This document shows, one piece after another, positions 16,768 to 34,187 of a stretch of DNA of 64,000 bases. Made by a program: the position numbers and the translations under genes. The number at the start of each line of letters is the position of its first letter. Position 1 is the first letter of the stretch. The DNA comes from Candidatus Fraserbacteria bacterium (GTDB lineage Bacteria; Bipolaricaulota; Bipolaricaulia; RBG-16-55-9; DRXL01), in assembly GCA_947085185.1 (NCBI GenBank), contig CAMTVK010000007.1, positions 64,001-128,000 of the forward strand. Direction: 5' to 3'. The notes below the pieces were generated by a model. That model was not told the DNA's origin. It was given only the letters and a program-made list of their open reading frames with translations, and searched no databases.

Positions 16768-16896
16768 CTCCTTTCTCGTGAGGTTAGAGTTATCTTAGCA
16801 CAGAGTCTTCGGGAGTGCACGGGGAGAGGGTTCTCAGGGGAGCATGTTTGTGTTATAATGACGCAAGACGAGAAACAGACAAAGGAGCAACACACA

Positions 16897-19800
16897 GTGA
16901 CCCAGAAACTTCAAGCGAACCACATCATTGAATCGGATTTTTGGCCAGAACCGGTCCGGGTGCTGACGATAGAGCCCTTGGGCGATCGCATGAAAGTGGA
17001 GGCCGTGGGCACAAGGACCCAGCGGTTCTATTCGCGCCTCCTCAGTCAGACCGACCTCGCTCTTGTTCGCATTGTCTCAGACACGCAGCGCGATTTCTTA
17101 GGAGATGCTGAGGGCTTTTTTCTCGCCATAGAGGCGCACCGCATCCGCTTCGCCCACCAGTTCGATCCGCTCCTGGCCGTCAACATCTCCCAAGTGGATC
17201 CCTTGCCCCACCAGATCGAGGCAGTTTATCACTACATTCTCCGCACTCCGCAGATCCGGTTTCTGCTGGCGGATGACCCCGGTGCTGGCAAAACCATCAT
17301 GACTGGCCTTGTCCTCAAAGAGCTCAAGTATCGGGGACTCGTGCAGCGGACGCTTATCGTCGTCCCGGGGCATCTCAAGGACCAATGGCTCCGCGAAATG
17401 AAGGAGCGCTTTGGCGAGAGCTTCACGGTGATTGATCGTAGCACCATCCACGCTACTTGGGGACGCAATGTTTGGCAGGAGCATCCCCAAGTGATCACCT
17501 CTATGGACTTTGCCAAACAAGAAGATGTGCTGGCTACTTTGGCCGAGGTCCACTGGGACCTGGCGGTCGCGGACGAAGCCCACAAGATGGCAGCCTATCG
17601 ATACGGAGACAAGACCAGCAAGACCGAACGCTATCGACTCGGCGAATTGCTTTCCCGCACCAGCCAGTTTCTGCTCTTCCTTACGGCGACACCGCACCGC
17701 GGCGACCCAGAAAATTTCCGCCTCTTTCTGGAGCTGCTTGAGCCAGGGATGTTCGCCAATACAGAGCTGTTGCTCGAATCTGTGCAAAACCGGGAGAACC
17801 CTCTGTTCCTACGTCGGCTCAAGGAGGATTTGCGGGACTTTGAAAACCGCCCGCTCTTTCCGCCACGCAGGGTCTTCACCAAGCCCTATCGGCTGAGTGA
17901 TACCGAGAAGCGGCTCTACAATGCCGTCACGGAGTACGTGGAGACGTCCTATAACAAGGCCCTGGCGACCGGAAAGCGCAATGTGGCGTTCGCGCTGCTC
18001 ATCCTGCAGCGGCGCATGGCTTCCAGCGTGCGGGCAGTGCGCCGATCGCTCGAACGGCGCAAGGAGCGCCTCGAAAAGCTCCTCAAGCTCGGGCAGTGGC
18101 TGGCCCAAGGCGAGCGGATTGACGAGGACGAACTCGAAGATGCCCCCGAATCCGAGCGCCTCCGCCAAGAAGAAGAGCTCATCGAGCGTCTCACCTCCGC
18201 CGAAACGCGCGAGGAGCTTCAAGAAGAGATCCGCACGCTAGAGGAGCTGGTCCGCCTGGCCAACGAGGCCGAACGCCAGGAAGTGGAAACCAAGCTCACG
18301 GAGCTTCGCCGCGTCATGGAAGACGAGAAGATTCGTGCCACGGGAGAAAAACTTCTGATCTTCACCGAGTCGCGCGAGACGCTGGAGTACCTGTGCGAGA
18401 AACTCAGCGCCTGGGGCTATTCGGTCGTCCCCCTCCACGGCGGCATGAACCTGGATGCCCGCATTCGCGCCGAGCATGAGTTTCGTGAGAAAGCCCAAGT
18501 CATGGTCTCCACCGAAGCCGGTGGCGAGGGCATCAATCTCCAGTTCTGCGCCCTCATGGTGAACTACGACATTCCCTGGAACCCAAACCGCCTGGAGCAG
18601 CGCATGGGGCGCATCCATCGCTACGGTCAACACAAAGAAGTGCACATCTATAACCTGGTCGCTAGCGACACGCGCGAGGGAAGGGTACTGCATGAGCTCT
18701 TCCAAAAACTCCAAGAGATTCAAGCTGCCATGGGGTCCGACCGCGTCTTCGATGTGATCGGCGAGCTCGTGCCGGAACGCAGCCTGAAAGACCTCATCGT
18801 GGAAGCCATTGCCCATCGGCGGACATTGGACGAGATCGTCGCGGAGATCGCAGCCATCCCTAACGAAGAAGCCCTGCGCAAGGTGCGCGCCGCAGCACTC
18901 GAAGCCCTGGCCACCCGGCACATCGAGTTGCACCGGATTCTCGGGGAAGACCGGAAGGCGCGCGAGCAGCGCCTGGTGCCAGAGTATATTGAGCGCTTCT
19001 TTGAGCGAAGCTGCGCCTTCTTGAACATTCGTCTGGAGCGGCGCCGCGATGGCTTCTGGCGGGTGCCCCAGGTGCCGCTTGAGGTGCGCCATGTCTCCCG
19101 GGAGTTCAAGCACTGCTTTGGGGAACCGTTTCGGGAATACAACAAGCTCGCGTTCGACAAAGAAAAAGCCCGCCGCGGGGATGCTGTCTTTGTAGCCCCT
19201 GGACATCCCTTGTTAGAAGCGATCCTTGAGCGGGTGCTGGCGCAAGGCATCCCCGATGCAAGGCGCGGTGCCATCTTTGCCGACCCCGACGGAAAGCTCG
19301 ACGGCTGGCTGTGGTTCTTGGAGGGCGAGCTGCGCGACGGCACCAACCAGATCGCAGGAAGACGACTCTTCGTCCTCTTGCAACCGCGCCAGGGAGGCCT
19401 GCTCCGGCTGGTCAATAGCTCCATCCTCTGGGACCTCAAACCCTCGATCCCCTCTCAGAGCATAGAACCGTGCCCCCCCGAGGGCGAGATCATCGCTTAT
19501 GCAGCCGAGCATGTGTTGGAAGCTTATCGCCAGGAGCTCCTCGAGGAACGCCAGCGCCAGAACGAGATCAAGAGAAAATACGGTCTGCGCTCGCTGGAGC
19601 AGATGATCCTCGAGTCGGATGCTAAGCTGATCGAATACGAGACGCGCCGTGCCAAGGGCGAGCCGATCCCCGATGCGGAAATCCACAACGAGCAGCGCCG
19701 CAACGAGGAGCTCCGCGCTCGGAAGCACACACTGGAAGAAGAGATCCGCCGGTCCAGCAGCCTCTTACCCTCCGTCCCCAGGGTGCTTGGAGTCGCCCGT

Positions 19801-20211
19801 GTGCTCCCCATGATGTCCCCAGACCCGTCCATGCGCCCCGATGCCGACATCGAAGCCATCGGCATGGAGATTGCCATGAACTACGAACGCTCTCAAGGAC
19901 GCGAGCCCGAAGACGTCTCGCTGCAGAACCTCGGCTATGATATTCGCTCTTACGCGCCCGATGGCACACTTCGCTCTATTGAGGTCAAAGCCCGTGCGAC
20001 CACCGGTGCGATCGTGCTCACGCCCAACGAATGGGTCATGGCACAGCGTCTGGGCGACGAATACTGGCTCTACATCGTGGAGAACGCCGCCACAAAGCCC
20101 AGGCTCCATCGGATCCAGAACCCGGCGGCTCGGCTCCAGCCCGAAATGGAAGTGTCCATCGTCCGCTACATCATTACAGACTGGCAGAAGGGAGTGTCCT
20201 ATGAAGCCTGA
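16897..20211 (+). CDS. SNF2-family helicase with C-terminal DUF3883-type nuclease domain
   Basis: PLPHQ, LLADDPGAGKT, DEAH, LTATP, STEAGGEGINLQ, WNPNRLEQRMGRIHRYGQ; C-term GYDIRS...IEVKA...LTPNEW; GTG start after AAGGAG. Confidence 0.92.
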   Translation: MTQKLQANHIIESDFWPEPVRVLTIEPLGDRMKVEAVGTRTQRFYSRLLSQTDLALVRIVSDTQRDFLGDAEGFFLAIEAHRIRFAHQFDPLLAVNISQVDPLPHQIEAVYHYILRTPQIRFLLADDPGAGKTIMTGLVLKELKYRGLVQRTLIVVPGHLKDQWLREMKERFGESFTVIDRSTIHATWGRNVWQEHPQVITSMDFAKQEDVLATLAEVHWDLAVADEAHKMAAYRYGDKTSKTERYRLGELLSRTSQFLLFLTATPHRGDPENFRLFLELLEPGMFANTELLLESVQNRENPLFLRRLKEDLRDFENRPLFPPRRVFTKPYRLSDTEKRLYNAVTEYVETSYNKALATGKRNVAFALLILQRRMASSVRAVRRSLERRKERLEKLLKLGQWLAQGERIDEDELEDAPESERLRQEEELIERLTSAETREELQEEIRTLEELVRLANEAERQEVETKLTELRRVMEDEKIRATGEKLLIFTESRETLEYLCEKLSAWGYSVVPLHGGMNLDARIRAEHEFREKAQVMVSTEAGGEGINLQFCALMVNYDIPWNPNRLEQRMGRIHRYGQHKEVHIYNLVASDTREGRVLHELFQKLQEIQAAMGSDRVFDVIGELVPERSLKDLIVEAIAHRRTLDEIVAEIAAIPNEEALRKVRAAALEALATRHIELHRILGEDRKAREQRLVPEYIERFFERSCAFLNIRLERRRDGFWRVPQVPLEVRHVSREFKHCFGEPFREYNKLAFDKEKARRGDAVFVAPGHPLLEAILERVLAQGIPDARRGAIFADPDGKLDGWLWFLEGELRDGTNQIAGRRLFVLLQPRQGGLLRLVNSSILWDLKPSIPSQSIEPCPPEGEIIAYAAEHVLEAYRQELLEERQRQNEIKRKYGLRSLEQMILESDAKLIEYETRRAKGEPIPDAEIHNEQRRNEELRARKHTLEEEIRRSSSLLPSVPRVLGVARVLPMMSPDPSMRPDADIEAIGMEIAMNYERSQGREPEDVSLQNLGYDIRSYAPDGTLRSIEVKARATTGAIVLTPNEWVMAQRLGDEYWLYIVENAATKPRLHRIQNPAARLQPEMEVSIVRYIITDWQKGVSYEA

Positions 20212-20267: not shown

Positions 20268-20687
20268 ATGCGGGAACGTGAAGTCATCAGGACCGTCGCC
20301 GAGCGATTGCGCGCGGAAGGACTGATGGACCTGAAGGTGCGCTACGGGAGCGAACCCGGCCCGGACATCGAGGGGACGCTGCCCCGCTCGCGGCGGCACC
20401 TGTTCGTCGAGGCGAAAGGGGAACGGGCTCGCACCTCGCCGCGCATCACCGTGGGAGAGGCGCTCCTCCAGATTCTCTCCCGCTGGGACAGCGATGTGGT
20501 CTGCGCTCTTGCGGTGCCCTATAACAAGGAATTCGAGGAGGTCCTTCGAACCATCCTGCCCGGCCTGCGCTGCCTGGAACTGCATGTCCTGTTGGCGAAA
20601 GATGGTGAAGTGTGGTATCTTAGCCCTAACAAGGCCGGTTTTCTGGTGGAAAAGCCCCTGTCCATCATTGAGGTGCTCGAAAGATGA
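20268..20687 (+). CDS. Small PD-(D/E)XK nuclease-fold protein
   Basis: GPDIEG...LFVEAKGE...GEALLQ motif; stop overlaps start of next gene. Confidence 0.65.
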   Translation: MREREVIRTVAERLRAEGLMDLKVRYGSEPGPDIEGTLPRSRRHLFVEAKGERARTSPRITVGEALLQILSRWDSDVVCALAVPYNKEFEEVLRTILPGLRCLELHVLLAKDGEVWYLSPNKAGFLVEKPLSIIEVLER

Positions 20688-22288
20688 GCAAAGCACAAAA
20701 AGCTATGACCCGCGTGATCGAAACCGACTTTCCCCTGCGCGCGGTCTCCGAGGAGTCCGTGCGCGAGAAGAACATCCGCCACGGCCACATCTCCACCCTG
20801 CACATCTGGTGGGCGCGCCGACCGCTGGCGGCCTCGCGGGCCACCGCATTGGCCGCACTGTTGCCCGATGACCCCAAGCGGCGCAACCAGTTCCTTGAAC
20901 TCGTCCGAGGCATCGCCCCGTGGGAGGCCGTCTCCGCCAACAGGGCCGATTCAACCCACCTGCTGGAAAATGCCCGCGCCCTCATCCGCGAGGCCTTTGA
21001 CGGCCGCGCCCCGCGGGTGCTCGACCCCTTCGCCGGCGGCGGGAGCATCCCCCTGGAGGCGCTGCGCCTGGGCTGCGAGACCTATGCGCTGGACTATAAC
21101 CCGGTGGCCGTGCTGCTCAACAAGTGCGTGCTGGAATACCCGCAAAAGTTCGGCCAACCCGGTTCGGTGGCGCAGGTCCCTTTGCCGCCCTGTGCGAAGA
21201 AGGACGAGGCGGATCTTTTTGGAGCCCACAGGGATGTTCAGGAGAATCCGCCGGGGCGCAGCGGCGCTGCGCCCCTCCTGGTGGCCGTGCGCGCCTGGGG
21301 CGACTGGGTGCTGGAGGAAGCACGCAAGGAACTGGCGCGTTTCTACCCGCCGGACGCGGATGGTTCCGTGCCCGTTGGTTATATCTGGGCGCGCACGCTG
21401 CCCTGCCAGAACCCGGCCTGCGGCGCCGAAATCCCCCTCATGCGCCAGACCTGGCTGGCCAGAAAGGACAACAAGAAGGTCGCCCTGAAGCTACTGCCGA
21501 ACCGCGCCGCCCGGCGGGTGGACGCGGCGATTGTGGAGGGCGCGGCCATTGACTTCGACCCGGAGGAGGGCACGACGGCCCGCGCCCACGTGCGCTGCCC
21601 GGCCTGCGGCGGGACGATAGACGATAAGACCACGCGCCGGCTCTTCCGCGAGGGCAAGGCCGGACAGCGCCTGATGGCGGTGGTGCTGCACAGGCCCGGC
21701 CGCAGCGGCAAGACCTACCGCCTGGCCACCGAGGCGGACCTGGTGGCCTACCGCGCCGCCGAGCAGGCGCTCGTAGGGGCAAGGCAGCGCCTTGCCCAGG
21801 ACTGGGGCCTGGACCCCGTGCCGGATGAGCCAACGCCTCTGGGTGGTGGCCCCGGCGCTGAAAGAGCCTTCTCTGTGCACAAGTATGGCCTGACCCGCTG
21901 GGGCGACCTCTTCAACCCCCGGCAGAAACTGGCGCTCATCACCTTTGCCGAGAAGGTGCGCCGCGCCCACGCCGAGATGCTCGCCCAGGGCGCCGACCCG
22001 GAATTCGCCCGGGCAGTGACGACTTATTTGGCGCTGGGGGTGGACATGATGGCGGCTTTCTGCAACTCTTTGGCGCGTTGGGAGAATACGTCGGAAGCGA
22101 TAAAACAGCTATTCTCTCGGCAGGCGTTGCCCATGCTTTGGGATTACATAGAACTAAATCCATTCAGTGGCTCAACTGGAAGTTGGGAGGCCGGTTGGGA
22201 GTACTATTTGGAGACGCTCGCCCACCTCATCCAAATCCCGCCGGTATCGGCGGGCGGGTGCGAGGCAGGCACGGAGGGTTTGCCATGA
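20684..22288 (+). CDS. DUF1156 adenine methyltransferase, N-terminal half
   Basis: LHIWWARRPLAASRA, motif I LDPFAGGGSIPLEA, CxxxxC/CxxC Zn sites, FNPRQ, FSRQALPMLWDY; lacks DPPY. Confidence 0.9.
   Translation: MSKAQKAMTRVIETDFPLRAVSEESVREKNIRHGHISTLHIWWARRPLAASRATALAALLPDDPKRRNQFLELVRGIAPWEAVSANRADSTHLLENARALIREAFDGRAPRVLDPFAGGGSIPLEALRLGCETYALDYNPVAVLLNKCVLEYPQKFGQPGSVAQVPLPPCAKKDEADLFGAHRDVQENPPGRSGAAPLLVAVRAWGDWVLEEARKELARFYPPDADGSVPVGYIWARTLPCQNPACGAEIPLMRQTWLARKDNKKVALKLLPNRAARRVDAAIVEGAAIDFDPEEGTTARAHVRCPACGGTIDDKTTRRLFREGKAGQRLMAVVLHRPGRSGKTYRLATEADLVAYRAAEQALVGARQRLAQDWGLDPVPDEPTPLGGGPGAERAFSVHKYGLTRWGDLFNPRQKLALITFAEKVRRAHAEMLAQGADPEFARAVTTYLALGVDMMAAFCNSLARWENTSEAIKQLFSRQALPMLWDYIELNPFSGSTGSWEAGWEYYLETLAHLIQIPPVSAGGCEAGTEGLP
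21253..21275. repeat. In-frame REP-like palindrome in methylase
   Basis: GGGGCGCAGCG-G-CGCTGCGCCCC. Confidence 0.6.
21773..21797. repeat. In-frame GTAG-type REP palindrome in methylase
   Basis: GTAG-GGGCAAGGC-AGC-GCCTTGCCC. Confidence 0.65.
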
Positions 22289-22593
22289 CCAAGCGCGTAC
22301 CAAAGCGGTTGGAGGAAATCCTGGAGACGCTCCGCCAACACAAGACGGAACTGGCGGAGCGCTACGGGGTGCGGGAGATGGCCGTCTTCGGCTCCTATGC
22401 CCGCGGCGAGGCCGGGCCCGAGAGCGACCTGGACATTCTCGTGGAGTTCACCGACCCGCCGGGGCTCATTGGCTTCATCCGGCTGGAGAACGAGCTCAGC
22501 GAACTCCTGGGCGTGCGGGTAGAACTGGTAACACGACAGGCGCTCAAGCGCCATATCGGCGAGCGAATTTTAGACGAGGCGGTGCCAGCATGA
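22285..22593 (+). CDS. Minimal nucleotidyltransferase (MNT/MntA-type antitoxin)
   Basis: VFGSYARGEAGPESDLDILVEF...VELVT...ALK; ATGA overlap with methylase N-half stop. Confidence 0.92.
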   Translation: MTKRVPKRLEEILETLRQHKTELAERYGVREMAVFGSYARGEAGPESDLDILVEFTDPPGLIGFIRLENELSELLGVRVELVTRQALKRHIGERILDEAVPA

Positions 22594-22934
22594 AGCGTGC
22601 GCTGAGGGATTATCTGGAAGATATGCTTTGCTCCGCTCGGGAAGCGCTGGAGTTCACCGAAGGGATGGACTTTGCCATGTTCTGCCATGACCGGAAGACG
22701 TTCAATGCGGTGTTGCGTTCTTTGGAAGTGCTCGGCGAAGCGGCAAAGAAAATCCCGAAGCCGGTGCGCGCCAAATACCCCGACCTGCCCTGGCAGGAAA
22801 TGGCGGGGATGCGCGATAAACTCATCCATGAGTATCACGGCGTGGATGAGCGAATCGTCTGGAAAACGGTTCGCGAGGACATTCCACCGTTGATACCTCT
22901 CTTGGAAAGAATCCTTCGGGAGGAGAGCCAATGA
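22590..22934 (+). CDS. HEPN RNase toxin (DUF86/HepT-type)
   Basis: YLEDML, AVLRSLEVLGEAAK, PWQEMAGMRDKLIHEY (RxxxxH). Confidence 0.92.
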   Translation: MKRALRDYLEDMLCSAREALEFTEGMDFAMFCHDRKTFNAVLRSLEVLGEAAKKIPKPVRAKYPDLPWQEMAGMRDKLIHEYHGVDERIVWKTVREDIPPLIPLLERILREESQ

Positions 22935-22937
22935 GCA

Positions 22938-23024
22938 CTGGAAGTAGATTTGCTCACCCCCGGCTCATTTCGCCGCAAACCTCGCTTATGGGACCAGGTG
23001 AAGGAGGATTTGACCTATGTCTAA
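22938..23024 (+). pseudogene. C-terminal remnant of a second MNT gene
   Basis: Reading frame LEVDLLTPGSFRRKPRLWDQVKEDLTYV* resembles an MNT C-terminus and overlaps the next HEPN start. Confidence 0.6.
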
Positions 23025-23202
23025 GCGCGATTGGACGTTCTTCCTTCAGGATATGCTGGAAAGCGTACAAGTGGGCTTGCGAAACCGTCTTGCCCATGCT
23101 TCCTTCGCTATCGACGACGAAATCGTCTGGGATATCGTGACTAACGAACTGCCCCTACTGAAAGAAAGATTGGAACGTATTCTCCGCGAGGTGCATGGAT
23201 GA
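23017..23202 (+). pseudogene. Internally deleted second HEPN/DUF86 gene
   Basis: MSKRDWTFFLQDMLES joined directly to GLRNRLAH...IVWDIV..ELPLLK; the central helices present in the neighbouring DUF86 are missing. Confidence 0.75.
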
Positions 23203-24473
23203 AGACCCTGCTGCTGCCACAGGTTACCCACGGCACCGCCACCGACCTGCCCTGGCCCGATAACTTCTTCGACGCCGTGCTCACCGACCCGCCCTACTAC
23301 GATAACGTCCCCTACGCCGACCTTTCCGACTTTTTCTACGTCTGGCTCAAGCGCACCGTGGGCGACCTGTACCCCGACCTCTTCGCTACCCCGCTCACGC
23401 CGAAATCACAAGAGATGGTCGCCGACGCCAGCAAGGCGGGCGGTATGGATCAGGCCAAGCGCCGCTTTGAGGAGATGCTCACCCAGTCCTTCCGCGAGAT
23501 CCACCGCGTGCTCAAGCCCGACGGGATCGCCGTGATCGTCTTTGCCCACAAGACGACCGCGGCCTGGGAGACGGTCATTCAAGCGCTCTTGGAGGCCGGC
23601 CTCTACATGACCGCCTCCTGGCCCATCCACACCGAGATGCAGGCGCGCTTGCGGGCGCAGGAGTCGGCGGCGCTGGCTTCTTCCATCTACATGGTCTGCC
23701 GCAAGCGCACTGTAGGGGCGGACGGCCGTCCGCCCATCGGCGAATTTGCCAAAGTGCGGCGGGAGATCGAAGAGCGGGTGCAGCGCAAACTCGCCCAGTT
23801 CTGGGACGAGGGCATCCGCGGGGCGGACTTCTTCATGAGCGCCATAGGCCCGGCGGTGGAAGCCTTCGGCCGCTACGCCCGCGTGGAAAAACTCTCCGGC
23901 GAGCCGGTCACGGTGACAGAACTGTTGGAGTACGTGCGCAAGGTGGTAAGCGAGTTTGCCTTGAGGCGCATCTTGAAAGAGGCGTACCGGGGCGGGGTGG
24001 ATGCGCTCACGCAGTTGTATCTGCTGTGGCGCTGGACGTATAATCACGCGCGGGTGCCCTTTGATGAAGCCCGCAAACTCGCGGCCGGCGTCGGCGTGGA
24101 GCTCTCCCAACAGTGGGGTCCTGGAGGAATCGTGAGCAAACAGAAAGAGTACATCGTGATGCGCACCCCCCAAGACCGCGCCCAAGACGAGCGCTTCGCC
24201 CAGCACACGGAATTCCGCACCATGATCGATGCGCTCCATCGGGCTGTGGCCCTGTGGGAACGCAATCGGCAACGCGAGCTCCAGGAGCACCTAGCGCAAA
24301 CCTATGGGACCAATGAGGCGTTCTGGCAAGTGGCGCAAGCGATCAGCGAGGTGCTCCCCGACGGCGATAAAGAAAAACAAACGCTTCAGGGGCTTCTCTA
24401 TAGGCACAGGTCCTATACCATACCCACCCCTGGCGAAACTCCACTCCCCTTTGAGAAAGGAGAGGCACCATGA
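23199..24473 (+). CDS. DUF1156 adenine methyltransferase, C-terminal half
   Basis: Motif IV TDPPYYDNVPYADLSDFFYVWLKR, RVLKPDG, FAHK, SWPIHTE, ALASSIYMVCRKR. Confidence 0.9.
   Translation: MKTLLLPQVTHGTATDLPWPDNFFDAVLTDPPYYDNVPYADLSDFFYVWLKRTVGDLYPDLFATPLTPKSQEMVADASKAGGMDQAKRRFEEMLTQSFREIHRVLKPDGIAVIVFAHKTTAAWETVIQALLEAGLYMTASWPIHTEMQARLRAQESAALASSIYMVCRKRTVGADGRPPIGEFAKVRREIEERVQRKLAQFWDEGIRGADFFMSAIGPAVEAFGRYARVEKLSGEPVTVTELLEYVRKVVSEFALRRILKEAYRGGVDALTQLYLLWRWTYNHARVPFDEARKLAAGVGVELSQQWGPGGIVSKQKEYIVMRTPQDRAQDERFAQHTEFRTMIDALHRAVALWERNRQRELQEHLAQTYGTNEAFWQVAQAISEVLPDGDKEKQTLQGLLYRHRSYTIPTPGETPLPFEKGEAP
23712..23735. repeat. In-frame GTAG-type REP palindrome in methylase C-half
   Basis: GTAG followed by perfect 20-bp palindrome GGGCGGACGGCCGTCCGCCC. 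Confidence 0.7.
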
Positions 24474-27091
24474 AGCCATGGTATCACACGATCACCCCCC
24501 ATCGGGACATCCGCGAGGGAAAGTTTGACGAATCGGTCTTCGCCGCCGATCTCTCGGACGTCATGGCCGGTCGAGCATCGGTGGAGTATCGCGATCCGGT
24601 CACGTTCTTTCGCAAGACCTACCCGACGCACGGCTTGAGGAACTTGCTTGCCGCGGTGCTGAAGCGGCTCTCCGGCTCAGGCCACGGGGAGAGCGTCATC
24701 CAAATCCAGACCCCCTTCGGCGGTGGCAAGACCCACAGCTTGATCGCGCTCTATCACGTGTTCAAGCACGCCCAAGAGCTTGAGGGTGTGGAGACCGTGG
24801 CGGAGATCCTCAAGGAAGCCCATACAGAAACAATCCCGCAGACACGGGTGGTGAGCTTTGTCGGGACCGCCCTTGATGCGCTTGGGGGCCGGACGCCCTG
24901 GGGCGAACTGGCGCATCAGTTGGAAGAGTACGAACAGCTCAAGGAGCATGATCGGCGGCGCCGCACCCCAGGGAAGGATCTCTTGCACAAGCTCTTGCAC
25001 GGCGAGCCAACCCTGATCCTCATGGATGAGCTCGCTGAATATGCCGTGAAAGCCAAGGACTTCCGCGACCAGGTGGTGGCGTTCATGCAGGAGCTCACCG
25101 AGACCGTGAAGGTGCTGCCCCGCTGCGCACTGGTGGTGACGCTGCCCTCCAGTGCCCCCTACGGTGAAGAAGGCGAACGTGCGCTCCACGAACTGCAGCA
25201 GATCTTCAAGCGCGTGGAGACCATCAAAACCCCGGTGGAAGGGGAGGAGATCTACGAAGTCATCCGCAGGCGACTCTTTGAAGATCACGGGGATGAAAGA
25301 GAGATCAGGCGCGTCGCCGAAGCCTACTGGGAGCTGTACCAACGCTTAGGGGACGATGTGCCCCGCGAGGTGCGCGAGCTGGCATATCGGGAACGGATGC
25401 GCAAGGCCTATCCGTTTCATCCCGAACTGATCGACGTGCTGTTTGAGCGCTGGAGCACCTTTCCCGATTTTCAGCGCACGCGCGGCGTGTTGCGCCTGCT
25501 GGCCCAGATCGTGGCCGAGCTGTACCGGCAGCAGCATCCCGCGCCGCTCATCCAACCCTGCCACATCAACCTGACCGATCCGGCCATACGCGCCGAGTTC
25601 TTGCGACACATCGGCAACGAGTACCAGGGCGTGATCGCCTCGGACATCGGCGGCCCCAACGCCAAGGCTGAGAAGATCGATCGGGAGATGGGCTCGGAAT
25701 ACGCACGGTTCCGCATTGCCAGCGGGGTGGCACGAGCGATCTTCTTTGCTTCCTTCAGCGGCTCAGAGAAGAAAGGCGTCGGGATTCAGCGGCTGCGGCT
25801 TGCGGTACTCACCCCCGAAATACCCCCAGCGATCGTCAGCGATGCCCTGCGCCGCCTGGAAGATGAGCTATGGTATCTGCATACGGAAGGGGGGCTCTAT
25901 TCGTTCTCCAGCCAGCCCAATCTCAACCGGGTGATCATCGAACGAGAGGAAGCGATCAAACCGGAGCAGATAGAAGAAGAGATCGAGAGACGCCTGGAGC
26001 ACCTGGCGGGCAGGGACATAGAGGTACGGCTCTTCCCCCACGATACGCACGATGTGCCCGATACCAAAGAGCTGAAGCTTGCTGTCCTTCCGCTGGACTA
26101 TCCTCGCCAAGCCAGCCAAACGGAAGAATTCGCAAAGAACCTGCTCACCAAGTGTGGACAGACCTTCCGGGTCTATCGGAACACCTTGGTGCTGCTTGGT
26201 GCCGATGACAGAGAGCTCGCTTCCCTGCGCGAGAATGCCAAACGCTGGCTCGCGCTGCAGACTATTGCCGACGACAAGGAGCTGATGCGGCGGCTTTCGG
26301 ATGAGAACAAGAGATGGCTGGAGACCAAGCGCAAGGATGCCGAAGGCAAGACGGGGTTTCAGCTCCTCAGTGCCTTCAGGCATCTTGCGAAAGCCGGTGT
26401 GGAGAGCACAGGCAGCGTGGAGTGGCACGATCTGGGCATTCCCACAGCAGGAGAAAAGACATCCCTGGCGTCTCGGGTGCGTGAGTACCTGCACACCCAG
26501 GAGCTCTTGCTGGAGAAGCTGTCTCCAAGGCGTCTTGTAGAAAAAGCCTGGCCCCCCGAAGACCAAGAAACACCGATCGAAGAGATCATCGAGGCGTTTC
26601 GCAAGTATCCGAACCTCCCCATGATCAGTGGGGCCCATGCCGTTTTGGATGCCATCGTCCAGGGGGTGCAAGAGGGTATATGGGGCGTGCGGGTTGGCGA
26701 GAAGATATACTTCCGTGAGGCCGTTCCCCGCTCGGCACTGGAAGGGGACGCGGTCTTGGTGCGGGCGGGGCATATCCCCGTATCGCCGCCAGCACCGCAA
26801 GAAATCGAATCTTCTACGACCCTACAGCCAACACCCGCCCCGCCGCCCCCTGCACCTCGCCAAGGGATCCAAACCTACTCTTTGCGGGCCAAAGTGCCAT
26901 GGGACAAGCTCTCGGATTTTGTGCGCGGGGTCGTGACCCCCCTGCGGCAGGACGGCGCAGAGCTGGAGATTGAAGTCTCCCTCCAAGCCCACACCCAATC
27001 CCAGGGGATCAAGAATCAGACGCTCGAACAGAAAGTGCGCGAGACACTCAAGCAGATCGGCGCCGAACTCCTAGATGAGTCGCAAGGGTGA
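24470..27091 (+). CDS. DUF499 AAA+ ATPase
   Basis: MKPW...FAADL, QTPFGGGKTHSLIALYH, LILMDE, YPFHPEL, FQRTRGVLRLLA. Confidence 0.92.
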   Translation: MKPWYHTITPHRDIREGKFDESVFAADLSDVMAGRASVEYRDPVTFFRKTYPTHGLRNLLAAVLKRLSGSGHGESVIQIQTPFGGGKTHSLIALYHVFKHAQELEGVETVAEILKEAHTETIPQTRVVSFVGTALDALGGRTPWGELAHQLEEYEQLKEHDRRRRTPGKDLLHKLLHGEPTLILMDELAEYAVKAKDFRDQVVAFMQELTETVKVLPRCALVVTLPSSAPYGEEGERALHELQQIFKRVETIKTPVEGEEIYEVIRRRLFEDHGDEREIRRVAEAYWELYQRLGDDVPREVRELAYRERMRKAYPFHPELIDVLFERWSTFPDFQRTRGVLRLLAQIVAELYRQQHPAPLIQPCHINLTDPAIRAEFLRHIGNEYQGVIASDIGGPNAKAEKIDREMGSEYARFRIASGVARAIFFASFSGSEKKGVGIQRLRLAVLTPEIPPAIVSDALRRLEDELWYLHTEGGLYSFSSQPNLNRVIIEREEAIKPEQIEEEIERRLEHLAGRDIEVRLFPHDTHDVPDTKELKLAVLPLDYPRQASQTEEFAKNLLTKCGQTFRVYRNTLVLLGADDRELASLRENAKRWLALQTIADDKELMRRLSDENKRWLETKRKDAEGKTGFQLLSAFRHLAKAGVESTGSVEWHDLGIPTAGEKTSLASRVREYLHTQELLLEKLSPRRLVEKAWPPEDQETPIEEIIEAFRKYPNLPMISGAHAVLDAIVQGVQEGIWGVRVGEKIYFREAVPRSALEGDAVLVRAGHIPVSPPAPQEIESSTTLQPTPAPPPPAPRQGIQTYSLRAKVPWDKLSDFVRGVVTPLRQDGAELEIEVSLQAHTQSQGIKNQTLEQKVRETLKQIGAELLDESQG

Positions 27092-29234: not shown

Positions 29235-32200
29235 GTGATCAGCGGGGACGACATCGCCAAACTGCGTATTGGTTTGGCCTCACCTGAGGAGATCAAGAGC
29301 TGGTCTCGCGGGGAGGTCACCGAATCCGAGACGATCAATTACAGGACGCATAAGGCCGAGCGCGGCGGCCTCTTCGCCGAGGAGATCTTCGGCCCGGAGA
29401 ACGACTACGAGTGCGCCTGCGGAAAGTACCGTGGGCGCAAGCACGAAGGGATCACATGCGAAAAGTGCGGGGTGCTCGTCACAAGCTCCGACGTGCGCCG
29501 CTCCAATATGGCCCACGTGGAGCTCGCCAGCCCCGTCGTCCATTTTTGGTATCTGAAGGGGATCTCCTCGCCCTTGAGCACCTTGCTGGGCATCAAGCGC
29601 GCGACCCTCAAAAAGATCGCGTATTACGAAACAACCCCCATCGAAGAAGAGATGTACATCGTCACCCAGTCGGGCTCTGGGGATTTCTCCAAGGGCGACA
29701 TCGTCTACGGGACGCAGTTGCATATCTTGGGGGAGAAGAAGAAATTCACGGCAGAGCGCCTGTACGCCCTCGAGAGCGACTTTACGATCTCCGCTGAGGG
29801 CGACGGGAAGGTCTCGTTTGAGAAGATCAAGCTCGAAAACGGCGAGGAGCTGAAGCTCATCAAGCTCGCCAATGCCACGAAAGCCTTCCCTGTGCCGCTC
29901 AACGCGGAGATGCTTGTGCAGTCCGGCGAGAAAGCCCAGGTCGGCCAGCCCCTGGCACGCCTGCTCAAAGAAGAGTATCTCAGCGAGACGACTTTTAACT
30001 TCCTCAAGAGCGTCTACCCCGACCTCAAGGGCAAAAAAGTCATAGAAACCGTGGACAGCTTGATCTACCTCGTCACGAGCGTCAAGAGCCCCCACGTGCC
30101 TCTCAAAGTTGGGGATCGCCTCTGGGAGCTCGAAAAGAGCGCTTATGAGAAGCTCTACCCGGGGCAGTTTGAAGCCGAGACTGGGGCTGCAGGGATCAAG
30201 GGCGTCTTAGCGAACTTAGACTTAGCTGCTCTGGAAGCTGAACTCCATGCGATGATCGCGCAAGAGCCCACCGAGGGCAAGCGCAAACGCCTCCTCAAGC
30301 GCCTCGAGATCGTCCAGCAAGTGCGCCGCAGCGGCAACCACCCCCAAAATATGGTGCTCAGTGTTATCCCAATCTTGCCCCCGGAGCTGCGCCCCATCGT
30401 CCAATTAGAGGGCGGCAAGTTCGCCACCACCGATCTCAACGACCTCTACCGACGGATCATCAACAGAAATAACAGGCTGAAAAAGCTCTTAGAGATGGGC
30501 GCTCCCGAAGTGATCTTGCGCAACGAGCGCAGAATGCTCCAAGAGGCCGTGGACGCACTCATCCACAACGAGAAGAAAGACAACCCCATCTTAGGACGAG
30601 ACAATCGCCCCTTAAAATCTTTGAGCGAACGCATCCAGGGCAAGCACGGGCGACTGCGAAGAAATCTCCTTGGCAAGAGAGTTGACTACTCTGGCCGCGC
30701 GGTCATCGTCGTCAACCCCAAGCTCAAACTTCATCAGTGTGGCCTGCCCAAGAAGATGGCCTTAGAGCTTTTTAAGCCCTTTATCCTCTCACGCCTGGGC
30801 GTGACGGCCATCTCAAACTTTGACGACGTCAAGAACAAAGCGCTCTCCGGAGAGATGCCCGAGGTCTGGGATATCCTCGAGCAGCTCGTCAAAGAGCACC
30901 CGGTCCTGCTCAATCGCGCTCCCACCCTGCACCGCCTGGGCATCCAAGGGTTCGAGCCGGTCTTGGTCGACGGGGAGTCCATTCAGATTCACCCGTTTGT
31001 CTGCCGCCCCTACAACGCTGACTTCGACGGCGACATGATGGCCGTGCATCTGCCCCTCAGCAAAGAAGCGATCCAAGAGACGCGCGAGATCATGCTCTCG
31101 TCCAAGAATATCCTCTCCCCGGCCAACGGCAAGCCCCTCAGCATCCCCACCCAGGACGCGATCTTCGCCTATTACTATCTGTCCATACTCGATCCAAACG
31201 GCTTGGGCAAGGGCAAGTATTTTGCCAATCTTGCCGAAGCCCAGCGCGCCTACGAAGAGAAACTCATCTCGCTCCATGCCCCCATCAAAATTCGCATAGA
31301 CGGCAAGCTCATAGACACAACCCTTGGACGCGCCCTGCTCAATACGGCCTTCCCCCCGGATCTGCGCGACTACGGAAAAACTTTCGATTCCGATGCCATC
31401 AATGCGCTCATCATGGAATGCTATTTCAAGCACGGCTTAGAGCGCACCGTGCAGCTCCTCGATGACCTCAAAGACTTAGGGTTCTCGTTTGCGACCAGAT
31501 CGGGATTGACCATCTCTGTGCGCGACTGCTTAATTCCCCCTGAAAAAGAAGCGATTCTCGCCGAAGCGCGGCAGCGCGTCGCCAAGATCAACGAGCGCTA
31601 CGAGCGCGGTCTCGTCACCGACGAAGAGCGCAAGACCAAGATCATAGAAGTCTGGATGGAAACCGTGGACAAGATCGCCGACGCCACCATGAAGAACCTC
31701 GCCCAGCACCCATTCAACCCGATCTATATGATCGTGGAGTCTGGGGCGCGCGGCAGCGCCACCCAAGTGAAGCAGCTCTCCGGGATGCGCGGCCCCATGA
31801 GCGACCCCTCCGGACGCATCATCGAGATGCCGGTCATCTCCAACTTCCGTGAAGGGCTGAACGTCATCGAGTACTTCATCAGCACGCACGGCGGACGCAA
31901 GGGCACCGCCGACACGGCCTTGAAGACTGCCGACTCAGGATATCTGACCCGACGCTTAGTGGACGCCACAGAAGAGCTGATCGTGAAGGCTGAAGATTGT
32001 GGGACGACCGAGGGCATCGAGATAGACCCGCTCTATTATACCAAACCTCACGAGGTCATGGAGACTATCGAGGAACGCATCTACGGGCGTGTGCTGGCCC
32101 AAGATCTCGTCTTTCTGGGCCAGACCCTGATGAAGCGCGGTGAGGTCTTCGATCGTGAGAAAGCCCAGCGCATCGGAGGGCTCCAAGCCGAACTCTCCAC

Positions 32201-34187
32201 CAGCGATCGCGCGTTCTACGAGCAGGTAGTGGGCACCAAGGCCGCCCAAGATATTCGCGATCCCAAGACCAACCACGTGGTCGTCTCCCAAGACGAGACC
32301 ATCACGCGGGCACTAGCAGAGAAACTGCGCGCCCTCAAGATCGAGACGATCCGCGTGCGCCCTACGATCGTCGTCCGGTCACCCATGCGCTGCACCGTCC
32401 GACGCGGCGTCTGTCAACAGTGCTACGGCTACGATCTGAGCACCCATAAGTTAGTCGAGCTTGGTACGGCCGTGGGCGTCATCGCCGCGCAGTCTATTGG
32501 CGAGCCCGGCACCCAATTAACCATGAAGACCTTCCACACCGGGGGCGTAGCAGGCATAGATATCACCCAGGGTCTGCCTCGTGCAGAGGAGCTCTTTGAG
32601 GCGCGCAAGGCCGTGCGAAGCTCCCAGAGCGAGATCGCACCGATCAGCGGTGTCGTGACACACCTCACCCAGTCCCCACAGACCGGACGACCGATGGTCA
32701 CCTTGCACGGCGACGAGAGGCGCATCCGACTGCCCAAAACGCTCTGCGCCTCCCCAGGACAGGGCCCAGCCATACAGCTAGGCCAGCTGCTCCAGAGCCA
32801 CAGCCCCCGCAGCGGCACAGTGCGGATCATCGAAACGGAAAAGCTCCGCAAGCTCTATATTCTCGAGGAGCACGATACTCTCTACACCGTGCCGGAGGGC
32901 GTCAAGCCCCTCGTGAGCCACGGCCAGAAAGTCCCTGCAGAGACGCTGCTCGCCGAGCCGTTCCATGAAGAGCCTCTGATCTCGACCGTGGACGGCGTCG
33001 TCGAGGAGGTCATAGAGAACGAGGAACGCGCCATCATCATCAAAGAGAAGGAGACCGGCAACCGCGTGCGCTACAAGATCCCCTACGGGGCACGCCGCTC
33101 CGTCAACCCCGGTGACAAGGTCGTGCAAGGCGAAAAACTCTCCACGAGCTCCAAGCCCATCGAGCTGCGCGCGCGCACCGCAGGCTACGCCATCGTCACC
33201 AAGAACCAGATTATCGTCTATCAGCCCGCCGAGGGCAAGGAGTTCACGCTCACCGAGGACGTCACCGTCTTAAAGGCCGACGGAGACTGGGTCGAAGCTG
33301 GAGAGCCGCTCTTCGCGCTCACCCTGCCCAGCGATGAGCTTGTGCACATTGACTCTATCAGATCTATAGACGACGAGCTCGTCGAGATCGCTTATCACCA
33401 AGAGACAACAGTCGAGCTGACCAACCCCCCAACGGTGCGCGTCGGCGATAAAGTACAAAAGGGCGAACTCCTCTCCAAAGGGGTGATCTCGCCCCATCGA
33501 TTGCTGAGCATCGCTGGGGTGGACAAAACGAGAACATATCTGCTTGAAGAGATCCACAAAGTCTACAAGAGCCAGGGCGTGGATATCAACGACAAGCATA
33601 TCGAGCTGGTCATTCGGCAGATGCTCAACAACGTGCGCATCATTGACCCAGGAGATTCGCAATTCTTGCCCAACGAGCTGGTCCTGCTAGAAGAGTTCCA
33701 AGCGGAGAACAAGCGTCTGCTTGAGGAGAATCGTCAGATTCGTCTCCAGCGCGAGCAGATCATCGGCCTGACGGTGGCTGCGCCGATTACCGATAAGACG
33801 GGAGCGGTCATCGCGGCGAAGGGCAGCACGGTGACGAGCGAGCTGCTCCGTGCGGCGCTGCGCGCCGGGGTGACGGAGATCGTGCTGGAGCGTGGCAAGG
33901 AGAAGGTGACACAGCGCATCGCGGAAAAGCGCCTGCCCAACGGCGAGCGCGTGCTGTTGCGCATCTCCAAAGCAGCCCTGGAGACCAAGTCGTGGCTCTC
34001 GGCCGCGTCGTTCCAGAGGACCACGACTGTGCTGGCCGAAGCGGCGCTCAAGGGCGCTGTGGACCGCTTAGAGAGTCTCAAGCCCGCCGTGATCGTGAGC
34101 AAGAGAATCCCTGCGGGGACGGGCTTCAAACGTCCGGCGCCTCAGCCAACGGCTATGCCCGCCCCTGAAGCGCAGCAGACTGCATGA
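29235..34187 (+). CDS. rpoC: RNA polymerase beta-prime subunit with large lineage-specific insertions
   Basis: CACGKY...CEKCG Zn finger, [63 protein letters not shown]. Confidence 0.98.

Follow-up and report, generated by a model that had tools for sequence, protein, structure and literature searches.

A two-gene hmaB with nested MNT-HEPN genes in an Hma operon of Candidatus Fraserbacteria, a putative two-chain DNA methylase

The two-gene hmaB and its nested genes

We examined 64,000 nucleotides of DNA from Candidatus Fraserbacteria bacterium (contig CAMTVK010000007.1, positions 64,001 to 128,000; this whole stretch is called the window below, and all coordinates refer to it). By its gene content, one locus in the window is an Hma (Type-1 BREX-related) operon in which the DNA methylase gene hmaB is present as two genes, all on the + strand, with toxin-antitoxin-like genes nested between them. 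The first gene (20684..22288; PADLOC HmaB E 3e-82) encodes an N-chain of 534 aa with a DUF1156 region, motif I (DPFAGGG, strands 1 and 2 of the methyltransferase core) at residue 114 (nt 21023), a target recognition domain (TRD) insert with CxxC pairs and the tail HLIQIPPV. The second (23199..24473; PADLOC HmaB E 4.4e-54) encodes a C-chain of 424 aa that begins with MKTLLLPQV at its own start, preceded by GAGGTG, and continues through strand 3, DPPY at residue 30 (nt 23286), strands 5 to 7 and a C-terminal helical region. As an initial annotation of the sequence had stated, both halves are open, with motif I in one and DPPY in the other. They match complementary parts of the PADLOC HmaB profile (positions 5–550 by the N-chain, 571–920 by the C-chain), and together they carry all the N6-methylase parts of Hma or Type-1 BREX-related systems, namely DUF1156, motif I, a TRD after strand 2 and DPPY.

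The intervening DNA was found to hold an intact MNT-HEPN pair followed by a decayed second one, in agreement with the initial annotation. The first MNT gene (22285..22593, 102 aa; PF01909, E 4.6e-19), a predicted MntA-type antitoxin, retains GS-X10-DXD at residue 36, and the following HEPN gene (22590..22934, 114 aa; PF01934, E 7.4e-29), a predicted HepT/DUF86-type RNase toxin, retains R-X4-H-X-Y at residue 75; these are the signature motifs given for HepT/MntA in PMC7641770. With adjacent PF01909 and PF01934 genes, MNT upstream and both motifs present, the pair has the features of Class I Type VII HepT/MntA systems. It differs from them in that its scores of 45 and 35.6 lie below the NCBIfam equivalog cut-off of 60 bits and in that it sits inside a methylase gene; its toxin and antitoxin roles are predicted. 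Of the second MNT gene, only the C-terminal ~30 codons remain (22935..23019; 55–61% identity to MNT C-termini at other split sites), without GS-X10-DXD, and the second HepT gene (23017..23202), whose start is preceded by AAGGAGG and whose stop overlaps the ATG of the C-chain, has lost 54 internal residues in frame (61 versus 115 aa) and no longer has the acceptor Tyr. The ATGA stop/start overlaps previously noted at 22285, 22590, 23199 and 24470 were all recovered, together with two more at 20684 and 22931. A promoter and terminator scan of the operon gave chance-level results (2 versus 2.1 expected and 9 versus 9.7 expected).

An assembly artefact is an unlikely cause of the split because contigs bridge both junctions and no insert-free joint was seen. 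Four runs of a single study, which may be the source of the window itself, contain contigs corresponding to 20892–22878 and 22405–23269 that span the two junctions, and the suggested search for sequences lacking the insert found no insert-skipping joint in the contigs of these runs, which drop rare variants. In one run of a second study, contigs of ~90% identity bridge the junction of the N-half with MNT and that of the HepT remnant with the C-half. No second hmaB was found in the window's genome (G000).

The break was placed in the methylase fold by alignment to fused relatives and by modelling the fused homologue L029 with AlphaFold (919 aa, 61-row alignment, pLDDT 89.9, pTM 0.88). The TRD of these methylases is described in PMC12839542 as inserted after core strand 2. 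In the L029 model, motif I and strand 2 occupy residues 108–134, the TRD insert runs to a helix ending at 510, and a lower-confidence loop at 511–518 is followed by strands at 519–523 and 536–541 that lead into DPPY. The split maps in this model to the loop between the last TRD helix and strand 3, and it removes no conserved residue; in fused relatives the TRD end leads directly to strand 3, and no methylase residue is missing at the break. The earlier placement of the break just before strand 3 and DPPY was thus confirmed. A fold search of the model against PDB gave no match at E 0.001 or better, and only generic class I methyltransferases, while a PDB sequence search gave only weak matches to Trm11-like proteins, and these place motif I and strand 3/DPPY to either side of the TRD insert.

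The class I methyltransferase sheet has the strand order 3-2-1-4-5-7-6. By analogy, strands 2 and 1 of the N-chain would sit between strands 3 and 4 of the C-chain, and with strands interleaved in this way activity would need co-folding of the two chains.

The flanking genes have the order described for the Hma system of PADLOC (HmaA/HmaB/HmaC), which is the Type-1 DUF499-centred BREX-related system of PMC12839542: a helicase-nuclease, a DUF1156 methylase and a DUF499 ATPase, with the TRD after core strand 2 and extra genes embedded in the operon. The hmaA frame (16858..20211, + strand; PADLOC HmaA E 1.8e-214; PF00176, PF00271 and PF13020) is open with an uncertain start codon and encodes an SNF2 helicase whose C-terminal NOV_C domain (DUF3883; PF13020, residues 999–1087) corresponds to the PD-(D/E)xK nuclease of these systems. 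Downstream of hmaB, the open hmaC gene (24470..27091, + strand; PADLOC HmaC E 6.7e-165; PF04465) encodes a DUF499 AAA+ ATPase of 873 aa. Canonical HmaB is one polypeptide, whereas here two open reading frames (ORFs) lie 0.9 kb apart, the break falling at the C-terminal border of the TRD insert, and we classed the locus as an Hma variant because of these two ORFs. Between hmaA and hmaB, and ATGA-coupled to the N-chain gene, lies a gene for a protein of 139 aa (20268..20687, + strand) without a match in Pfam, PADLOC or NCBIfam. By eye it has a D...E-x-K pattern resembling restriction-type nucleases, and homologues of 43–71% identity occupy the hmaA-hmaB junction of seven other loci (L028, L031, L034, L038, L043, L049 and L080). 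Further downstream in the window, an ORF of 1650 aa (29235–34187), which from its motifs we take to resemble RNA polymerase beta-prime, has no obvious beta-subunit gene directly upstream.

Recurrence of the split and conservation of the halves

The initial annotation had proposed a search for other genomes split at the same residue with different cargo, and such loci were indeed found. We compiled a census of 160 loci, consisting of the window, 79 loci from genomes and 80 from metagenomes (in each case the best 80, out of 92 and out of at least 598 respectively). They were first sorted into 113 with fused hmaB, 18 with both halves visible, 13 with only a C-half start and 16 without a C-half start. 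Among the 18, L055 was set aside: it has an IS4 transposase near the same loop and a frameshifted N-half, and it was rejected as a natural split and taken as an ordinary insertion sequence (IS) knock-out. Of the 13 loci with only a C-half start, seven have a stop at the same site followed by a new start, five are cut off by a contig edge and one shows a different rearrangement. The final tally was 17 split loci with both halves (including the window), seven more C-half restarts, 113 fused, one IS-disrupted and 22 uninformative, so that 24 of the 160 loci, the window included, are split at the same site with varied cargo.

Judged by their record titles, the 24 split loci come from Planctomycetota, Atribacterota, Chloroflexota, Bipolaricaulota and metagenomes. 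Thermotogota was not counted because the phylum of L051 (genome G062, labelled Thermotogaceae) gave the same contigs as the window's relatives. Phylum-wide scans near G062 (183 genomes) and G061 (86 genomes) returned mostly known loci and one new split candidate, L192, which is outside the counts. The chain ends at the split are conserved as the N tail HLTxIPPVE and the C head MKxLxIPxV, and an IPP-type tail ends 15 of 18 split N-halves versus 11 of 112 fused linkers.

Stand-alone halves were also abundant in protein searches, which were restricted to 0.55–1.75 times the query length and clustered at 90%, so that full-length proteins were wholly or partly excluded and the following ratios are not frequencies. 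Among the matches listed, stand-alone C-halves beginning at the split site made up 58 of 120 and 96 of 120 clusters (the first count omits seven doubtful starts and the window's own protein), with starts 20–50, mostly 28, residues before DPPY. Stand-alone N-halves likewise made up 58 of 119 among the matches listed, 52 of the 58 with an IPP-type tail. Named sources of these proteins include Thermodesulfobacterium sp. TA1, Thermodesulfovibrio autotrophicus, Caldisericum sp. and the archaeon Ca. Methanoxibalbensis. The C-halves of the isolates Thermodesulfobacterium sp. TA1 (WP_206202405.1) and T. autotrophicus 3907-1M (WP_353684854.1) are carried on chromosome-sized contigs; a search of the methylome literature for these two strains returned nothing.

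We then compared the conservation of split and fused alleles. Of the columns conserved in 61 fused homologues, the window keeps 83 of 83 in its N-chain and 84 of 85 in its C-chain, where the fused proteins themselves have median misses of 2 and 3. DPPY is kept in all 154 stand-alone C-halves and motif I in all 58 stand-alone N-halves. Conserved positions were missed by stand-alone C-halves at 77 of 4927 and 190 of 8156, and by fused fragments at 111 of 3990 and 43 of 1697. Divergence among split C-halves was 0.038 in conserved versus 0.418 in variable columns, a roughly tenfold gap (fused, 0.041 versus 0.450), and the N-halves gave 0.025 versus 0.426 (fused, 0.017 versus 0.495). Within six families of C-halves sharing the same start peptide, conserved columns differ by 1–2% and variable ones by 8–32%.

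The ratio of non-synonymous to synonymous divergence (dN/dS), computed pairwise between sister alleles by the Nei-Gojobori method, was 0.12 for the split C-halves of L062/L066 and 0.083 for those of L035/L091 (N part, 0.043). It was 0.11–0.14, at a synonymous divergence (dS) of 0.14–0.26, in the young clade of L131, L132 and L136, which share their cargo, and 0.06–0.30 among fused sisters. The relaxed selection that the initial annotation had named as grounds for refuting a functional enzyme was not observed, both halves being under purifying selection. In this selection and in having their own starts, the two halves resemble those of a two-polypeptide methylase like M.AquI.

Exchange of TRD, junction and cargo

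The split alleles do not form one clade, and a single origin of the split was unsupported by the C-half tree. In this FastTree tree of 107 rows, which is unreliable under recombination and excludes 30 of 137 rows at <48% identity as well as L047 and short rows, the split label requires 18 changes, at least 9 of them forced by well-supported branches, against a shuffled mean of 21.9. Split L063 and fused P0250 are identical at 342 of 350 positions up to the TRD, at only 95 of 165 over the TRD end, and at 97.8% in the C-half, and fused P0250 clusters with the stand-alone C-half P0003. Of 24 TRD types, 14 were found split and 11 in both states, and a single tail type is combined with 9 different TRD types. 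In the window, the exchangeable TRD segment is 22047..22219 (+ strand; GC 51% versus 69% upstream). In a related contig of run X5, the flanks, tail and MNT gene of the window are kept while 22047–22219 is replaced by 167 other letters. The cargo is also recombined, L108 and L117 having a common TRD end with different cargo and L063 and L117 a common MNT type with different TRD ends. TRD, junction and cargo are exchanged between near-identical backbones. Fused forms often keep both junction peptides (IPPVEDLPQV), and the change may be fission or re-fusion. The long linkers of fused alleles were also considered as cargo remnants, and no significant match was obtained.

Two further kinds of rearrangement were seen in hmaB. 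At a contig end in L058 (1–1700), two split N-half ends lie back to back in inverted orientation with different TRDs and the same tail and MNT start, which could reflect the joining of two strain alleles during assembly or, alternatively, a TRD cassette capable of inversion. In several C-halves, an intein-like insert of ~1.27 kb that includes a LAGLIDADG-type region follows immediately on DPPY (FFY|C); it is open in L058 (2186–4687), broken in L047 (599–3137) and also present in L048, L053, L054 and L085. In-frame inserts were also seen close to residues 158 and 432 of the N-half, with DUF559 in P0033 and P0049.

MNT and/or HEPN cargo of Class I (PF01934) or Class II (PF05168) was found at 19 of the 24 split sites, and MNT/HEPN genes were rare at other junctions (4 of 85 hmaA-hmaB and 6 of 94 hmaB-hmaC). 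The remaining five are L035, with a faint MNT trace, L142, whose cargo is not visible, and L131, L132 and L136, with coiled-coil arrays. These arrays (L131, 1–800; L132, 2591–4990; L136, 515–1935) are opposite-strand tandem runs of up to five paralogous genes for proteins of 120–180 aa with hydrophobic C-termini, and in L131 TTGTCA-17-TATAAT was noticed by eye just upstream of the C-half. The cargo is truncated or gone in L001, L031, L035, L063, L091 and L108, where the visible methylase halves are open. Because it is so often decayed or lost, the sequences argue that the cargo is a dispensable passenger. In the window, L108 and L114, the stop of the last, decayed HepT gene forms an ATGA with the start of the C-chain, and in L031 this gene overlaps that start; the small sample hints at selection for continued translation of the C-chain.

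Relatives of the cargo were also found elsewhere. MNT-HEPN pairs 68–74% identical to the window's first pair lie between fused hmaB and hmaC in L052 (2297–2919) and upstream of hmaA in L063 (502–1127). Some stand-alone N-halves begin with a fused HEPN domain (PF05168), and one C-half is fused to a HepT with a deletion (P0314, P0347 and P0204). For comparison, the consulted part of PMC3710099 describes HEPNs in restriction operons as not fused to methylases and MNT-HEPN dyads as expanded in thermophiles.

A putative two-chain methylase and alternative explanations

We consider it probable that split hmaB encodes an N6-adenine methylase maintained by selection as two chains, and that its TRD and junction form a cassette which recombination exchanges and in which toxin-antitoxin genes ride as passengers. 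The initial annotation had proposed a functional two-chain methylase with an insertion hotspot, and this is supported by the recurrent split at one site, the varied cargo and the purifying selection, the support being comparative rather than biochemical; that HmaB methylates DNA we infer from its motifs. Both chains would be made from a single mRNA by way of its successive ATGA overlaps and would then co-fold, with strands 1–2, the S-adenosylmethionine site and the TRD supplied by the N-chain and strand 3, DPPY and strands 5–7 by the C-chain. The assembled enzyme would methylate the adenine specified by its TRD and so mark self for the HmaA/HmaC arm. Homologous recombination between three stretches, namely the conserved core of the N-half, the short HLTxIPPVE block and the head of the C-half, would swap TRDs, giving new specificity, and would also interconvert split and fused alleles. 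MNT-HEPN pairs would collect at the hmaB junction because this site moves with the most-swapped part of the operon. They may add addiction, in that loss of short-lived MNT activity would free the RNase and so stabilise the locus. New pairs would stack up as old ones decay, the last remnant tending to keep a frame that ends on the C-chain start.

Several observations weigh against this interpretation. The N parts of L132 and L136 gave a dN/dS of 0.50 (168 codons, mostly TRD), several dS values exceed 1, and split N-halves miss slightly more conserved positions than fused ones (68 of 4813 versus 42 of 4562, P 0.028). With L055 omitted and the loci not independent, hmaB is broken in 5 of 24 split versus 7 of 113 fused loci and hmaA or hmaC in 5 of 19 versus 8 of 98 (Fisher P 0.037 for each). 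The protein lists were score-ranked and held called ORFs only, which favours intact sequences and leaves pseudogenes invisible, and owing to recombination a split may have arisen after its backbone diverged. In addition, the one test of HmaB described in the portion of PMC11232893 consulted was negative: T4 grown on Halomonas cells expressing HmaB did not differ from wild type, and HmaA was protective by itself.

A different role for the cargo, compatible with a two-chain enzyme, is that it is a selected guard: shut-off of host expression or inhibition of Hma by a phage would de-repress HepT, leading to abortive infection or to cutting of the operon mRNA upstream of the C-chain. This appears rather unlikely to us, even though the cargo is almost only MNT/HEPN, of two classes (PF01934 and PF05168), and far richer here than at other junctions, and HEPN fusions to either methylase half (P0314, P0347, P0204) occur. 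Published parallels are a HEPN fused to DUF499 in 1370 of 2446 Type-1 taxa, as stated in the consulted part of PMC12839542, and HEC-08, described in bioRxiv 2024.01.29.577857 as an Hma-embedded HEPN defence. On the other hand, the cargo frequently consists of MNT alone (L063, L091, L137) or is decayed, is missing from L035 and is unrelated in L131, L132 and L136; pairs of this type also occur at other junctions (L052, L063), and Class II HEPNs are reported without the RNase motif in the portion of PMC7641770 consulted.

It is improbable that the split alleles are dead or dying, with MNT-HEPN insertion repeatedly knocking out hmaB at a recombination hotspot, addiction keeping the wreck and conservation inherited from fused ancestors. 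The excess of broken hmaB and hmaA/hmaC genes in split loci would fit such decay, as would the at least 9 forced changes among 18 on the C-half tree, by which many splits could be recent, and the presence of hmaB beside only 85.3% of hmaA in the consulted part of PMC11232893. However, the visible halves are unbroken in 19 of 24 split loci, and four of the five broken ones also have hmaA or hmaC broken, so that the whole operon is decaying there, as it might if addiction preserved dead loci or if the allele were less fit. Also against it are start peptides that are dedicated and shared and come with a ribosome-binding site or ATGA overlap, constraint within same-start families and within the clade of L131, L132 and L136 with its common odd cargo, 14 TRD types among split alleles, and cargo that decays first. 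The dead gene offered as an alternative in the initial annotation is therefore disfavoured for the allele class by its conserved halves, while some split loci are decaying.

Still less probable is that the halves are kept for separate, non-catalytic jobs and form no methylase, with the C-chain, for example, scaffolding HmaA/HmaC and the N-chain recognising DNA as a free subunit. In the parts of the Hma literature examined, activity of HmaB is unproven, and the C-half of the L029 model extends past its catalytic core into a large helical region, but the universal retention of motif I in stand-alone N-halves (58/58) and DPPY in C-halves (154/154) concerns motifs that make sense only together. 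Finally, removal of the insert at the DNA, RNA or protein level to restore one chain is hardly credible: fused alleles with both junction peptides and real inteins elsewhere in hmaB would suit it, but an excision element, intron or split intein was rejected on the insert-bridging contigs of four runs (which drop rare variants), the lack of terminal repeats at the insert ends and of any Rfam match at E 0.1, and profile searches found no intein-like or recombinase sequence in the insert, while the C-half has its own start.

Among the closest published counterparts are the ‘guilt-by-embedding’ candidates of bioRxiv 10.1101/2024.01.29.577857, in which defence-like cargo, including the HEPN HEC-08, is nested in Hma operons. 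As described in the part of that preprint consulted, they lie between hma genes, whereas the window's cargo is an MNT-HEPN dyad inside hmaB; only loci with each hma gene once and no pseudogene were kept there, a filter that would likely exclude a two-piece hmaB. M.AquI and M.EcoHK31I are also normally monomeric DNA methylases present as two chains, M.AquI being cut in the variable region, and the consulted account (PMC3404938) presents them as C5-cytosine enzymes and describes no cargo between the pieces. The window encodes a putative amino-methylase (DPPY) in which the cut separates strand 2/TRD from strand 3, and split hmaB differs further in the 0.2–2.4 kb of foreign genes between its halves and in being an allele class of several phyla. 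The word ‘split’ has no match in the main text of PMC12839542 or the Payne 2024 preprint, and our literature search turned up no account of an hmaB in two genes with cargo between them, although the supplements of these two papers may show such loci. Hma, cargo between hma genes and two-chain C5 methylases were already known, and the two-gene hmaB with internal cargo is apparently new.

If the two-chain interpretation is true, a natural two-chain amino-methylase would join the few two-chain methylases described, which are C5 enzymes in the part of PMC3404938 consulted, and would offer a ready-made split point for targeted, thermostable N6-methyladenine writers. Isolates with stand-alone C-halves (TA1, 3907-1M) make it testable, and matched split and fused alleles with the same TRD, together with the 24 TRD types, provide a direct route to HmaB methylation and the motif of each TRD. 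The embedding of defence cargo extends here from between genes to the inside of a core gene, and the split-hmaB class has likely been discarded as fragmented by defence-finding pipelines. More tentatively, and at less than even probability, thermophiles of several bacterial phyla and archaea may possess a natural heterodimeric N6-adenine methylase with a Rossmann sheet built from two chains. The cut would make the TRD a swappable specificity subunit and create a gene-internal landing pad, where MNT-HEPN pairs would be selected as guards or addiction locks tied to the specificity cassette, and split and fused HmaB would be interconvertible states of one antiviral system.

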